A DNA stretch of 64,000 nt, taken from NCBI GenBank assembly GCA_964016885.1, contig OZ024745.1:121458001-121522000 (forward strand). The letters are read 5' to 3'. Each line of letters starts with the position of its first letter. The first letter of the stretch is position 1. The position numbers and the translations under genes are program-made. Below the pieces are notes generated by a model. That model ran no database searches, was not told the origin of the DNA, and was given only the letters and a program-made list of their open reading frames with translations. This DNA is from Eledone cirrhosa (taxonomy: Eukaryota). Below are positions 6,001-26,981 of this stretch, piece by piece.

Positions 6001-9000
6001 GTTAACTTTACTATATATATATCATCATCATCATTTTACGTCCGCTTTTCCCTGCTTGCAAGGGTTGGACGGGTCCTATTCAGCACAGCATCTCTCCACT
6101 TGTCACGGTCCTTCATCATCTCCTCGGTGAGCTTCAGCGATCTGAGGTCTGCTCTCACCACCTCCGCCCATGTTTTACGTGGTATACCTCTACTGCGTCT
6201 TCCTTCTACTGGGATTTCTTGGCACTTCTTTACCCAGCGGTTATCCTCCATGAGCATCACATGTCCATACTATCTCAGCCTTCTCTCCTGCACACCACAA
6301 CTTATCCCTCTTATACCAAGTTTCTTTCTCAACTCGTCCATGCTTGGTCATTCACACACATTTACATTGCACATCCAACGGAGCATACTTGTTTCATTTC
6401 TCTCCAGCCGTCGCATATCTTCTGCAGTTGCTGCCCATGTCTCACTACCATGCAAGCATCATATAACTGTCCTTTCGTACGCAGGGAGAAACCCTTCTTT
6501 GTCAACAAAGGAAGCAGCTCCCTAAACTTCTTCCAACCCATCCCTATTCTAGATACTATGGCCTCGGAACACGCCCCCTCCCATGCTAATCTGATCACCT
6601 AGGAACCGGAAGCTATCAACCACTTCTATAGAACCTACCTGCATTGGAAAAATGAGTATCACTGCGATTACTACTGCCAACTTTCCCTGTACATCTACTG
6701 CGTACGTAGTTTTCCCTACCTGTTAGTTTGCCTGCTATCCCACTATATCTCTTGTGTACCCAAGATCTGCATTGCATCCATTTTTGGAATTTATGCCAGT
6801 TCCTTTCCTACATATTGAACAAGGCCATTTCCCCGATGGAATCAGAGTATTGTCTTCTCTTCTACTCATCAACACTTTTGTCTTAGCTATGTTCACTCTC
6901 AGTCCTCTTGATTCCAACTGCTGTTTCCATAGCCAGAATTTATTCTCTAGCTCCTCTACTGATTCTGCTATAGTAAGGGGTTAACCTTACTATATATATA
7001 GTAAGGGGTTAACCGAACAAGGATGTGCGGACCACATAACGGTCTGTCGGAAGTGAAGTAGATAAAAGAATGCATTCAACGACCTGTATAAAGGTGCAAG
7101 CCGGAGCATTATATATCAATAAAAATTCGAGGCAATATTCATTTGGTTTTGGTTTATTAAAATCCATAATGTACTTCCACCAGTCTCCTTAGAGTCACAC
7201 AAGGGGCCGACCATTGTGGAAATAACATCACACGCCTGGTCGGCCCCTGTATCAAGACAAGACAAAAGTAAACCAATTCTGAATATAAAAGTTTTTTTAT
7301 AATATTTCATTGTATTTTAGGTTTACCATTTGAGAAGCTCCGGATGCCATAACTGACAAGACTCAGGGAAATATACATTACAGATTTTAATAAACCAAAA
7401 CCAAATGAATATGGCCTCGAATTTTTATTGATATATATATATATATATATATATATATATAAATATATATATATATATATATATTTAATTAGAAAGTGAA
7501 CAACACAGTATATAACTACTCCATTACCAAAGGTTTCAGGACACTAGACAATATTAACATATGTCTAGTTCGCTCATCAGATAGAGGGGTTATGAATAGC
7601 TCTGTTTTATATATAGAGCACTCTTTTTACCTTTGCTTTTTCTTCGGAAATACTTAACATATATATATATATCATCATCATCATCATCATCATTTTACAT
7701 CCGCTTTTCCCTGCTTGCAAGGGTTGGATGGGTCCTATTCAGCACAGCATCTCTCCACTTGTCACGGTCCTCCGTCATCTCCTCGGTGAGTCTCAGCGAT
7801 CTGAGGTCTGCTCTCACCACCTCCGCCCATGTCTTTCGTGGTCTACCTCTACTGCGTCTTCCTTCTACTGGGATTTCTTGGCACTTCTTTACCCAGCGGT
7901 CATCCTCCATGCGCATCACATGTCCATACCATCTCAGCCTTCTCTCCTGCACACCACAACTTATATATATACAGCATTTAAAATGTCATATTGATCTTTA
8001 ATACTCTGTGTTTGTTTCTAATTAAACTGAAAAATGTCTACAAGATCAGCTAATTATTAATATTATTATTATTATTGTTATTGTTATTAGTATTATAAGG
8101 CCGGTGGTTTGGCAGTAACGGTAGAGCATCAGACCCCATGCTTTGCAGCATAGGAGTTATGGCCCTTTACGTTCTGAGTCCCGCCAGGTTAACTTTGCCT
8201 TTCATCCTTACGGGGTCGATAAAATAAAGTACCAGTGATGCACTGGGGTAATTGCTGGTGTTGTACCAAAAATAGAAACATTATTATTATTATTATTATT
8301 ATTATAGGAATATTTATGCACTGATGGTATATTACTAACATTATTATATTTTAACTTATCTTTTCACAGTTAAACAAGAATCTCTCCATTTCCCAATTGA
8401 AAGGGCCTGCATGACTATGTGGTTTGGAATAGCACCTCTCAGTGCTGCCGTAAGTTCTCTTTCATCATTGCCATTTAATTATCTTCATCCTCATCACCAC
8501 CTTTCCCGTTTAACATCTATTTTCCATCCTTCCATAGGTTAGATGGGCTATCACATCATGAGGTTAGGCAGGTCGGATGACCACGTCTTGCTCAAACACT
8601 ACATTTTTGGCTTGGTTTTCCATGGCTAGATGCCCATCCTAATGCCAACCCCCTTACAAAATGGACTGGGTGTTTTTGTCGTAGAACTAGTGTGACCACT
8701 TTACAGAATGAATTAGGTGCTTTTTTCATAGCACCAGAACTACCACTTTACAGGATGGACTGGGTGCTTTTACTTTTTTTGTGACACCAGCACTACCACT
8801 TTACAAGGTAGAGTGGATGCTTTTATTTATAACACCAATACAACAACCTTACAGGGTTTATACAAGTTTATACAATATATATCCTGCTTCAGTTAGCTAT
8901 GTTGAAGCAAATATAACTCTTAGCAGAAATATGTATCTACATAAGAATTCATTATATTTTCTAAGATACAATAACATATATTAGATAAGAAAAGGCAAGC

Positions 9001-12000
9001 TCCCAGAAAACTGACTTTATAAACCAGCTTCAATTACAAGTTGGAGTTAATTTAACTCCCTTTATACTCTTAATGTCTATAAGAATGGCATTAACATCAC
9101 ATACTCCCATTTAGCACAACCATATATATGTAGATTTGTAGTTAAATAAGGTGAAGGTGCATGGCTTAGTGGTTAGGATGTTCGGCTTATGATTGTAAAG
9201 TTGTGAGTTTGATTCTTGCTGATGCATTGTGTGCTTGAGCAAGACACTTTATTTCACTTTGCTCTAGTCCACTCAGCTGACAATAGAGAGTTGTACCTGT
9301 AATTCAAAGGACCAACCTTGTCACACATTTTGTCATGCTGAATCTCCCTGAGAACTACGTTAAGGGTACATATACCTGTGAAATGTTCAGCCACATGCAT
9401 GTTAATTTCATGAACAGTCTGCTTCATTGTTCAAACAACTGCAACATTTATCGTTGAAACCAATGGAAGTCCTACATGGCTGAGAGTCAGTACAAGTTAG
9501 GAAATTGATAATATGATGGTGCTGGCCTCAGATCTGTGAGCAAGACGGTGACCCAAGCTAGAACTGACTTAGGTATACAGGTTATTAGGGCATCTATTCC
9601 AAACCATAGGAATTAACCCTCATCTGCCCTTAAGGGGTATGTCCAACACATCATCATTTCATTTTACGTCCGCTTTTTCCCTGCTTGCAAGGGTGGGACG
9701 GGAACTGATTCTGGCTTGATTTCTACAGCTGGATGCCCTTCCTAACACCAACCTCATTTACAGTGAGTGCTGGGTGCTTTTTTGCCGTGGCGCCTCCACG
9801 TGGAATGACAGGGACCCCAGTCCCTATCATCTCATTTCTACAGCTGAGTAAACTGGAGCAATGTGAAATAAAGTGTCTTACTCAAGGAAACAACACATCA
9901 CCCGGTCTGAGAATTGAACTCACAACCTTTCGATTGCAAGGCCAATGCTCTAACCACTAAGCCATGTGCCTCCAACACAATTTCATAAAAGACCATTTAC
10001 CTTTCCATGAAGCATACCAAACTCTTCTACTGAAGGTGCTATGGTGCCTCCATGTTTCCCTCCAACAGGTAAGATGTGTGGTTACACTGGGGATAAAGTA
10101 GGTACATGTAACCTCTTGGTGGTATTGGAGTGTCAATGAGTGACCTTCATCTGCCGGGTTAATTATTTACCAATATCTGGGACCGTAACAGATGCTACCA
10201 TCCTTGGTTAGGGTGGACCTGGGAACAACAGCTAAATTAGATGTGAATATTTTGTAAGAGAGATTTATATTTTGTTTCATTCCAGTGTCTGCTGACTTAC
10301 TTCATGATAAGGTATGTGTATGTCACACATGTGGTCAGCTATGATGAACGCTGGGCTAATGGTGTGGGCTGGGCTATTGCTGCTGGACCAATTGTACTTG
10401 GTATAGGACTTGGCACATTTTTTGTTCTCCACAAGCAGAAAGGAACATTAAAAGAAGTAAGTAATTCAGAGTTTATCTTACAATATTACTCATGACTGAA
10501 TTAAATTGTTTATTCATTCTTTTTCTCCTGCTGCAGAACCTGTATATACCATAAAGATAAAATAGGTTACACAAAACAAATTATACATGTATGCTGTATA
10601 CCATGCTTATATACATGTTGAAAAACCCACCTTTTGTACACATATTAATTTTTTTGTTTGCTGAAAAATATGCAAATGTATGCACATGACAGAGCTCAGT
10701 GTGAATAATAGTTGATGGAAACAATGCTGATGTATTTTGAACAGGCTGTATCTGTAATTTGAAGACTTAGTTATATCACCCACAATATAATGCTGAGTTT
10801 GTTTGAAGATTATGTTAACCTCTTGATATGCTGCGTATATTTTACACAGCTACAGTTACTGAGCTGGATTTTTTTTTTCAGTAAAATTACTATTTTGATT
10901 GACAAACATCATATCAATAAACTAGTAACCCCTTCTAGCTTTGAAGTTATGAACGAGTTCATAATTTTGAAGTTATGAACTGTTGGAAAGGAGTTCAAAC
11001 ATGTTAGGATGAGTTATCTCATCTACGACACTGAAGAAGTTAAGGATACAAGTGTCTGTGGAATGGTCAGATAACTACACTATAATTCAATGAGTTGGTA
11101 GTTCTGTTGATCAAACAGCTGGAACTCTAATTGTCAAACCTGGCATCAGCTGTTTATAACTATGGTCTGTTTCATGGGTATTCTTCTGAAAGCAATGAAT
11201 CTTGTTTTAGTTTTGAACTCATGAAGATGGGAAAAAAGACAAAATAACAATGCCATGAATTATCATCATCATTGTCGTCATCATCATCATCGTTTAACGT
11301 CTATCTTCCATGCTATTGAACAGAATGCTTTGAGACAATGTTTAACAGCAGGAGCCTCTCCCTTTTAGTTGCCTCTAACAACACACAAGGATGTGTTGTA
11401 CTTATTCTAAAAAACAGTATACACATGGGAGATACACCCAACACAGGTTCACAATCTCTTATCTGAAAACCTTGGGATCAAACACTTTGGATATCGGAAT
11501 GGAAAATTTTTAACGTAGATTTTAAAGTTTTTTAGATAAAACATTACAGGGGACAGAGTGGCTCAGTGGTAGAGCGCTCAGCTTGTGGCCGCAAGGTCAC
11601 AAGTTTGCGCCTCAAACCCGGCAGTTACTCGGTGAGGGAGGTAGCGCTCTCTTGTCAACAAAAAATAAACAAAATATCTGTGAACAGCAGAGGCGACGTG
11701 TGTCTGACTGGTAGGAGCACTGAGACACAACTGTGTGACCTGGGTTGACTGTGGGTCATTGCAGGTCAAGTTTGGCTCCAAACGTGAGCTTTGGTGTGTA
11801 GACAACATCCTGGAAAAAATGTTCGGTTTAGGAACTCTTCGGTTTTCAGAATTTCGACTAAAAGATTGTGAACATGTATATAGTTGCTGCATGTAGACAA
11901 TTTGTTTTAAATACTTCATATCACTGAATCATATTTGATCTAATCTTATTTTCTTTAATTTGTCAATTTTTTTATGACAGAGATTCCTGCAGTCACTTCG

Positions 12001-26456: not shown

Positions 26457-26527
26457 TATTTTATTATGTGCATTTCAAAAACAAATATCATCATGGGATG
26501 ATACTTGCGTTCTCATCAGATAAAATA
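26457..26527 (-). ncRNA. Type I hammerhead ribozyme candidate
   Basis: Minus strand: UAUUUUAU-CUGAUGA-16 bp stem II (one mismatch, CCAU loop)-GAA-AUGCACAU-A^AUAAAAUA. Stem I is a perfect 8 bp. Confidence 0.78.
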
Positions 26528-26981
26528 GGGAGACATGATATGAAGTTTAAAAAACACTTGCGAGCAGTGAAGTGTTAAATCTACATATGAAAAATAAAAT
26601 AAGATGGATATATATATATATATATATATATATATATATATATATGAAGTACAATGTCAAAATCGAAAGACAAACATGAAGAACAATTCACAAAATTCAT
26701 ACAAATGTATCCATATATATACATACCTCTCTCTCTCCTCCTCTCTCCCCCCCCCCTCTCTCTCTCTCTCTTTATATATATATATATATATATATATATA
26801 CCAAATACACATATATGACTATGACAGTCATTTAAGAGAAGGAGGGTAGTGGGGTTGTGTGAGAATGACAGGTGGTGAAGGAGGGAGAAAAGACGACACC
26901 CATATCATCTCTAATCATTTATGTATTGTTTCATTTACTTTACGGGGGTGAAATCATTTCCTTTGCTTTCCCTGTATTAAG

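Follow-up and report, generated by a model that had tools for sequence, protein, structure and literature searches.

The three hammerhead-bearing cassettes on the minus strand of the window, the 64,000-nucleotide stretch of Eledone cirrhosa DNA analysed here (contig OZ024745.1), are best explained, with a probability of about 0.93, as 5′-truncated pLTR stubs of three EN+ Penelope-like element (PLE) families, whose longer copies carry a reverse transcriptase (RT)-endonuclease gene upstream of the same hammerhead and which were likely inserted into TA microsatellites by the enzymes of the elements. The finding is mostly an ordinary one, and it corrects the reading of the locus to PLE remnants instead of a new retrozyme system. 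The features concerned, in window coordinates, are the following.

4909-5025 and 8369-8437, plus strand: SLC6/SNF transporter gene exons; the intron between them holds insertion 1
7431..7486: (TA)n target left of insertion 1, read from the sequence
7487..7594, minus strand: family 1 (Hydra-type PLE by motifs), 5′-truncated pLTR end of about 108 nt; copies genome-wide 82-93% identical
7519..7586, minus strand: predicted hammerhead 1; 6-bp stem I (7586-7581/7524-7519), CUGAUGA from 7580, GAAA at 7537, long and interrupted stem II, helix III ACC-UUU-GGU (3 bp, 3-nt loop), predicted cut after 7525 (GUA)
7595..7659, plus strand: inverted second arm of insertion 1, a family-1 tail; 85-92% matches in other copies
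7660..7672: (TA)n right of insertion 1, then the (CAT)n end of an unrelated repeat
11978-12220, plus strand: last coding exon of the SLC6/SNF transporter gene
15345..15401: (TA)n target at the 3′ end of insertion 2, read from the sequence
15402..15614, minus strand: family 2 (Neptune/Nematis-type PLE by motifs), 5′-truncated pLTR end, no tail; copies 91-95% identical
15526..15568, minus strand: predicted hammerhead 2, minimal PLE type with the architecture of PMC4209133; stem I of 4-5 bp, CUGAGGA from 15564, an extra G after A9, 6-bp stem II closed by G-C, GAAA at 15539, helix III AGAGCU (2 bp, 2-nt loop; closable only as a dimer), predicted cut after 15530 (CUU)
15615..15652: unassigned 38 nt at the 5′ junction of insertion 2, absent from the 29 other top copies; (TA)n follows
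26421..26613, minus strand: family 3 (Hydra-type PLE by motifs), 5′-truncated pLTR end, no tail; copies 97-99% identical
26457..26527, minus strand: predicted hammerhead 3; 8-bp stem I, CUGAUGA from 26519, long stem II, GAAA at 26476, helix III AUGCACAU (3 bp, 2-nt loop; AUGCGCAU in the family), predicted cut after 26465 (AUA)
26608..26645: (TA)n at the 5′ junction of insertion 3, read from the sequence

The first-pass annotation had described three type I hammerheads on the minus strand, and the core motifs are present at the coordinates that it gave; a three-helix architecture with an open-ended helix I fits all three cassettes, and their self-cleavage is putative. Nothing beyond the core can be aligned between them (best blastn E 0.04), in keeping with the remark that they share little other sequence. 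Within family 1, 90.8% of the alignment cells were paired, versus 28-49% for slid structures; within-family covariation was confined to one clear column (C-G 13 and U-A 11 of 28), and the number of pairs with two-sided change was at a level reached by 311 of 500 shuffles. In cassettes 2 and 3, closing helix III requires either a 2-nt loop or dimerisation. Most family-3 copies (39 of 47) have the perfectly palindromic AUGCGCAU in this helix, so that cassette 3 in the window is a mutated copy, with the change at 26469. Dimeric variants of PLE hammerheads have reportedly been described by Lunse et al. in 2017.

Minimal hammerheads of metazoan PLEs have a long helix II, a short helix I, an extra nucleotide after A9 and a palindromic helix III, and they occur in thousands, mostly as single motifs from truncated PLEs, with closely spaced pairs in opposite orientation (Cervera and de la Pena 2014, PMC4209133). 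Cassette 2 fits this type fully; in cassettes 1 and 3, stems I and II are longer and the conserved G10.1-C11.1 pair is missing (PMC4209133). Family 2 has that pair (G in 61 of 70 copies, in the extra-nucleotide register), and the canonical form is absent from families 1 and 3: family 3 has G-U (32/47) or A-U (15/47), and among 110 family-1 copies C.A (49) and A.A (13) are commonest, with G-U in 17 and A-U in 11, so that a large family-1 sublineage has an intact core without a 10.1-11.1 pair.

The first-pass annotation had proposed BLAST for copy number, and all three cassettes belong to dispersed multi-copy families, with at least 1,655, 791 and 14,967 exact-probe copies genome-wide for families 1, 2 and 3, respectively, and 0 matches for the reversed-probe controls. 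Longer copies of all three contain, on the hammerhead strand, a Penelope-like ORF (RT plus C-terminal GIY-YIG) ending 0.2-1.1 kb upstream. Family membership, this ORF linkage, 5′ and 3′ pLTRs around the ORF and variable 5′ truncation were each observed directly. In family 3, an open endonuclease-bearing frame of at least 150 aa lies upstream in six of ten extended loci and two more align over the ORF, which ends about 0.9-1.0 kb upstream in longer copies; one locus (L311) has the order pLTR, 715-aa open frame, pLTR, with the pLTRs 3.67 kb apart. Sequence of this family also occurs in three contig sets of unrecorded kind, which are uninformative on ends, strand or level. Among 30 family-1 loci picked by ORF DNA, the hammerhead lies downstream in line in five, hammerhead and tail lie just upstream of the ORF start in three, and an inverted hammerhead arm lies upstream in four, one locus being counted in two classes. 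The family-1 pLTR end is colinear downstream of the ORF in L227, L228, L234, L241 and L245; pLTRs around the ORF were found 5′ in L229, L242, L247 and L256 and 3′ in L228 and L234. The family-1 protein was read in pieces, no copy with an unbroken ORF being found among the loci examined. Tandem same-strand family-1 repeats of 5.5 kb and 3.5 kb on one contig (C1) were considered as full-length elements and set aside as larger duplications holding other transposons, and the intact 830-aa Hydra-type families found with the L096 protein are partners of no window cassette. In family 2, longer copies have endonuclease-coding sequence upstream, and the pLTR end was downstream in line in 23 of 25 loci picked by protein (69-94% identical to the window copy); only 3′ and inverted pLTR copies were seen. 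Its L287 protein matched RVT_1 (E 5.6e-4) and GIY-YIG (E 9.1e-4) in Pfam, both below the curated cut-offs; a Pfam search of the Hydra-type proteins of families 1 and 3 returned nothing relevant. The earlier inference stands in its PLE branch: the octopus-like genome has three Penelope-like families that target (TA)n and are linked to RT/GIY-YIG ORFs.

The clade names of all three families are provisional and motif-based; Hydra-clade motifs are present in families 1 and 3, and family 2 shows a Neptune/Nematis-type linker and CCHH. The Hydra clade consists of C-terminal EN+ PLEs and includes Hydra-1_Obim of Octopus bimaculoides, whose supplement entry records a (TA)n target and a hammerhead (Craig et al. 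2021, PMC8557442). Like that clade as described there, families 1 and 3 have a C-terminal GIY-YIG without CCHH (zero or one cysteine between GIY and YIG), the DKT motif (FSDKTKN in L231 of family 1; HSDKTN in L311 and L314 of family 3), a CxCX5C linker (CSCRNPGEC and CNCPVRTKC, respectively), CxxC (CTLC; CNLC) and CxH (CPH; CLH) around a conserved E and N, a pLTR hammerhead and (TA)n targets. The N-terminus, thumb and helix III of family 1 closely resemble Hydra-1_Obim, by eye only (PMC8557442). The two families are distinct from each other, with 41% identity over 245 RT residues. They differ from the Hydra clade in their length of about 3.5-3.7 kb with 1-kb 3′ UTRs, compared with ‘generally under 3 kb’, and in a long stem II without the G10.1-C11.1 pair; family 3 further differs in having RWI for RWK (RLRWIA, against RMRWKA in family 1) and about 15,000 probe copies (PMC8557442). 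Family 2, read in L287, has a CX2-5CxxC linker (CIDKKCITC) and a CCHH endonuclease (VVYSIRCTEGQCRDKNIVYIGET), with DKS where Neptune/Nematis C-terminal EN+ PLEs have DKG, and its motifs fit Neptune and Nematis alike (PMC8557442).

The (TA)n flanks are as earlier described, on both sides of cassettes 1 and 2 and on one side of cassette 3, and (TA)n or a related microsatellite adjoins the 3′ end or the tail end in most copies inspected. The islands of 170-250 nt are not self-contained units: 7595-7659 is a tail in the opposite orientation, and the families reach 2-3.5 kb upstream. Island 1 is a two-armed insertion, made of the pLTR end and the inverted tail of family 1, the tail being defined as the sequence after the pLTR and before the ORF; in other copies, matches to 7595-7659 follow the pLTR end directly, and in L229, L242, L247 and L256 they lie between the 5′ pLTR and the ORF. 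The 38 nt at 15615..15652 had no match among the 290 fetched loci. The 5′ junction of insertion 3 falls in ATATAT common to the pLTR end and (TA)n, and the other side of cassette 3 adjoins a (GAT)n-tailed element.

Inverted second arms, a tail on one arm and (TA)n targets were observed beyond the window as well. Inverted pairs within 1.5 kb were found at 25/89, 6/29 and 5/29 loci in three sets (36/147 in total), and same-strand pairs at 0/89, 0/29 and 1/29 (1/147), the single same-strand locus being an inverted pair beside a separate copy. All 16 inverted family-3 pairs, and five of six inverted family-1 pairs, carry the tail on one arm but not on the other. Because the 16 junction centres differ, the idea that the 240-nt inverted pairs derive from a fixed palindromic mini-element was rejected. 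The distance of the 5′ ends upstream of the cut site ranges from 0 to over 1.4 kb; nine of 30 family-3 arms, from seven insertions, end at −120 to −130 relative to it, and one of the 30 begins exactly at the predicted cut site, too few as evidence of cleavage.

From the PLE literature, the endonuclease would nick AT-rich DNA, reverse transcription would start inside the RNA, at the pLTR end or the tail end, and would stop early, and two primings would give two-armed inserts. The hammerhead likely acts in a full-length or tandem transcript, either dimerised through the palindromic helix III or assisted by protein; the single stubs in the window, which are separated by 8 and 11 kb and come from different families, with cassette 1 antisense to the host gene, are predicted to be passive. 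As in the PAc Poseidon element of Anolis, the tail is the sequence after the pLTR, the targets are AT-rich and the pLTR holds a hammerhead, whereas tails here are about 60-90 nt compared with 30-40 and the clade differs (PMC11167929). It is conceivable, if rather doubtful, that the stubs record PLE copying more closely, with two-armed inserts arising when both cut strands are primed at two fixed positions within a single RNA, many short arms being full copies of the transcript 5′ end that stop at a pLTR transcription start lying about 124 nt before the cut site, not random truncations, and the family-1 sublineage without a 10.1-11.1 pair, which kept transposing, being a possible active core variant.

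The cassettes had also been described as all opposite to the genes here, possibly through selection against sense self-cleaving inserts in host pre-mRNA. The description is borne out only for cassette 1, antisense in an intron of the plus-strand SLC6 gene; cassettes 2 and 3 lie 3.2 and 14.2 kb past the SLC6 stop codon. Only one cassette is placed in a gene, a shared strand for all three has p = 0.25, and the strand argument drawn from them finds no support. Many intronic retroelements are antisense-biased for other reasons. Xenopus introns are reported to be depleted of retrozymes (10.64898/2026.07.22.740005), but monomer cleavage by lone PLE minimal hammerheads was undetectable in vitro (PMC4209133), and selection appears an improbable cause of the shared orientation.

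It is very unlikely that the cassettes are monomers of non-coding non-LTR retrozymes, spreading via small circular RNAs with PLE enzymes. Their size of 110-210 nt, their type I hammerheads with short palindromic helix III and the short stubs that make up most sampled copies would suit this reading, short repeats with such hammerheads are a likeness to metazoan non-LTR retrozymes (PMC7229834; 10.64898/2026.07.22.740005), and a pLTR origin of retrozymes has been proposed (10.64898/2026.07.22.740005). However, retrozymes are tandem repeats of 150-450 bp (PMC7229834), and the cassette families showed no tandem arrays in the loci studied and are tied to coding elements; the 5′ ends of the arms are variable and do not continue into the tail, as copying from a circle would give. 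The retrozyme and circular-RNA branch of the earlier inference is therefore unsupported, because all three families continue into RT-endonuclease ORFs and head-to-tail arrays were not found in the loci studied. These loci were those with the best scores, or the first in the list, among thousands, so that a small subfamily of tandem, non-coding units could exist as well.

A strict descriptor (three contiguous pairs from 10.1, 3-nt loop) matched cassette 3 only; a relaxed one, written after the cassettes had been seen, matched all three and no other site in the window. Across 300 shuffled windows the relaxed descriptor gave 0, 1 or 2 matches in 269, 27 and 4 shuffles (mean 0.12, maximum 2). No hammerhead was matched in Rfam searches of 7480-7670 or, at the gathering threshold, of three family copies, nor among the 150 of 187 matches listed in a whole-window scan, all of which were to other families; the long-stem variants here are neither supported nor excluded by Rfam. 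Minimum-energy folds of monomers and homodimers did not isolate the hammerhead core and are uninformative on the active fold. That such folds arose by chance in AT-rich, hairpin-prone DNA has, despite these Rfam and folding results and the recovery of one of three cassettes by the strict descriptor, a negligible likelihood, because none of the 300 shuffles (the control proposed in the first-pass annotation) reached three matches, the CUGANGA, GAAA and UH core is intact in 89/110, 58/70 and 46/47 copies of families 1, 2 and 3, the 290 fetched loci hold 249 hammerhead-like sites with many unrelated stem sequences, many with palindromic helix III, and each motif sits in a pLTR, the expected location of a PLE hammerhead.

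Both the presence of hammerheads in PLE pLTRs and an octopus Hydra family targeting (TA)n have been published before. Apart from the Hydra-1_Obim entry, a literature search turned up no article dedicated to hammerheads in cephalopods, and the words hammerhead, ribozyme and Hydra are absent from the main text of the octopus repeat annotation PMC13282606. The genome holds tens of thousands of hammerhead-bearing PLE ends together with young intact Hydra-type ORFs, and the copy numbers suffice to test two questions in PLE biology, the depletion of intronic hammerheads in sense orientation and the origin of the tail and the inverted arm. Residual interest lies in the consistently one-armed tails of the family-3 inverted pairs (16/16) and in the family-1 sublineage without a 10.1-11.1 pair.

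The three hammerhead cassettes are real and represent new families within the already known kind of Penelope-like element (PLE). Their motifs were read from the sequence and lie, with the host exons, as follows:

Core 7580, GAAA 7537, minus strand: hammerhead 1
Core 15564, GAAA 15539, minus strand: hammerhead 2
Core 26519, GAAA 26476, minus strand: hammerhead 3
Beginning ahead of the window, stop at 12220, plus strand: exons of an SLC6/SNF transporter gene
Near 56.9 and 58.4 kb (56945-58455), plus strand: two C2H2 zinc-finger-like exons

All three minus-strand motifs claimed by the first-pass annotation are present, and outside the core the cassettes have no sequence in common. 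A strict hammerhead descriptor matched cassette 3 alone in the window; a relaxed one, composed only once the cassettes had been seen, returned exactly cassettes 1, 2 and 3 over the 64 kb. On 300 dinucleotide shuffles (2-kb blocks) the relaxed descriptor averaged 0.12 matches and never exceeded 2. Rfam recognised no hammerhead in 7480-7670 or in three family copies, nor among the 150 of 187 whole-window matches listed. Each cassette belongs, as a single copy, to a large dispersed family. In DNA searches of the 3.0-Gb genome, the best 40 of 1,977 (family 1), 3,404 (family 2) and 1,610 (family 3) candidates were scored, and the closest other copies among them had 93%, 94% and 99% identity, respectively. 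Exact probes matched at least 1,655, 791 and 14,967 times, all being lower bounds and the last taking in a sister subfamily, and reversed-probe controls gave 0.

The proposed link to PLE open reading frames (ORFs) was recovered for every family. For family 3 (26421-26613), upstream sequence is common to most top copies, and six of the ten loci followed out to 8 kb have an open frame of at least 150 aa, belonging to the PLE C-terminal part, that ends ~1 kb before the hammerhead; among the other four, two align over the PLE frame and two stop in or near the UTR. The cassette lies downstream and in line in 4/4 loci chosen for long frames, and one locus (L311) has the order pLTR (the end repeat carrying the hammerhead), tail (the sequence between pLTR end and ORF), 715-aa open frame and pLTR, with 3.67 kb from pLTR to pLTR. 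The protein has HSDKTN, YRDDG, CNCPVRTKC, LVY..YFG, CNLC and CLH, and RLRWIA instead of RWK. For family 1 (7487-7659), a stepwise upstream walk from the pLTR across a microsatellite-rich UTR ends in an endonuclease ORF. Among 30 loci chosen with family 1 ORF DNA, the hammerhead is downstream in line in five, hammerhead and tail immediately precede the ORF start in three (with L256 as a fourth case of a 5′ pLTR), and an inverted hammerhead arm lies upstream in four. Four loci (L211, L213, L214 and L228) have one or two internal copies of their own tail in the 3′ UTR, ~0.7-1 kb upstream of the hammerhead. A sister family, whose tail is related and whose hammerhead differs (helix III ACC-ACU-GGU), is nested inside family 1 UTR microsatellites (L171-L173, L213 and L214). 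For family 2 (15402-15614), at least five of seven longer copies examined have endonuclease-coding sequence upstream, and in 23 of 25 loci chosen by protein the pLTR end, mostly that of a sister subfamily, follows downstream and in line. At insertion 2, a 38-nt stretch of the 5′ junction (15615-15652) matched nothing among 290 fetched loci.

Family 1 motifs taken from broken frames (RMRWKA, FSDKTKN, YRDDG, CSCRNPGEC, CTLC and CPH) are the Hydra-clade features set out in section 11 of PMC8557442, and the family resembles, judged by eye only, Hydra-1_Obim of Octopus bimaculoides, which the supplement of that paper lists with a (TA)n preference and a hammerhead. A 711-aa family 2 frame (L287) matches RVT_1 and GIY-YIG weakly, is barely alignable with Hydra-type proteins, and follows the Neptune/Nematis pattern of PMC8557442, with DKS, YVDD, CIDKKCITC and, between VVY and YIG, two cysteines; cassette 2 is of the minimal PLE hammerhead type (PMC4209133). 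In other Hydra-type PLE families of the genome (L199-L202 and L205; contigs C4, C2, C6 and C10), 830-834-aa frames are intact and many copies score equally, which suggests recent activity; the L199 UTR contained no own hammerhead matching the descriptor.

Anatomy, truncation, inversion, tails and targets of these PLE families could be observed directly. Of 147 anchor loci examined out to 1.5 kb, 36 had inverted pairs, where one pair may be counted from each arm, and only 1 had a same-strand pair, which speaks against tandem arrays. All 16 family 3 inverted pairs with a spacing of <1 kb within the first 100 places listed carry the tail on exactly one arm (10 flagged by script, six read from printed flanks), as do 5/6 family 1 pairs; the 16 family 3 pairs have differing junction centres, and inverted truncated copies are also present at L093 and L094. 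This agrees with the inverted copy and one-sided tail in the Fig. 2 legend of PMC8557442, and one-arm tails fit the report that RT starts at two internal sites in PAc, the Anolis Poseidon PLE (PMC11167929). Read on the minus strand, island 1 opens with 63 nt that reverse-complement the tail following the pLTR end in other family 1 copies, and island 1 is therefore a two-armed insert, its arms being a 108-nt pLTR end (minus) and a 65-nt tail (plus). The 5′ ends of 30 family 3 arms, taken in order of position, spread between the cut site and >1.4 kb upstream of it; nine arms, from seven insertions, end at −120 to −130 in a palindromic CATATG, a cluster that either transcription start there or microhomology joining would explain, and the window copy ends at −149 within ATATAT. 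In L352, one arm of the 30, the start coincides with the predicted cleavage site and an inverted tail is joined on; at one in 30, this is a lead only.

The core is intact in 89/110, 58/70 and 46/47 copies of families 1-3, with position 7 variable, values inflated because copies were chosen by similarity. In 28 family 1 copies, the proposed structure pairs 90.8% of cells versus 28-49% when slid, and one column shows clear compensatory change (C-G 13, U-A 11); the remaining covariation measures were no better than shuffles. Across the 290 loci, 249 hammerhead-like sites have many unrelated stems, with helix III palindromes including AUGCGCAU, AUAUAUAU, ACUAGU and ACGCGU, and this between-family diversity is stronger support for hammerheads than within-family covariation. 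G10.1-C11.1 is missing in families 1 and 3; family 1 most commonly has C.A (49/110) or A.A (13/110), its window copy G-U then C.C, and a mutation disrupts the helix III palindrome of the family 3 window copy. A minimal PLE hammerhead showed no monomer and low dimer cleavage in the assays of PMC4209133, and PMC11167929 describes protein-assisted cleavage and in vitro insertion that does not require it. By analogy with PLE work, transcription would begin in a pLTR, the endonuclease would nick AT-rich DNA, and RT would prime at two internal sites and stop early; as the weakest step, the long transcript may be processed by the hammerhead, acting in dimeric form or assisted by protein. The isolated window stubs are most likely passive.

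Orientation opposite to genes is shown for cassette 1 alone, antisense in the SLC6/SNF intron between 5025 and 8369; cassettes 2 and 3 lie 3.2 and 14.2 kb past the stop. The chance of all three cassettes sharing a strand is p = 0.25, and the arms of insertion 1 occupy both strands; forward/reverse probe counts (844/811, 374/417 and 7,501/7,466 for families 1-3) are uninformative on bias relative to genes. A window exon shows 96% identity to an Octopus sinensis protein, so the genome is probably that of an octopus. At 5610-5975, a fourth fold-back repeat flanked by (TA)n, possibly another PLE-type stub, has similar sequence in fetched loci and a variant hammerhead-like core, CUGAUCA...GAAA (~5902-5918, plus), whose stem I is not clear. 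A short repeat between TA runs (52772-52942) recurs next to PLE stubs in fetched loci, and 34319-35858 is a tandem array in which a 28-bp unit recurs in 55 copies (95% identity).
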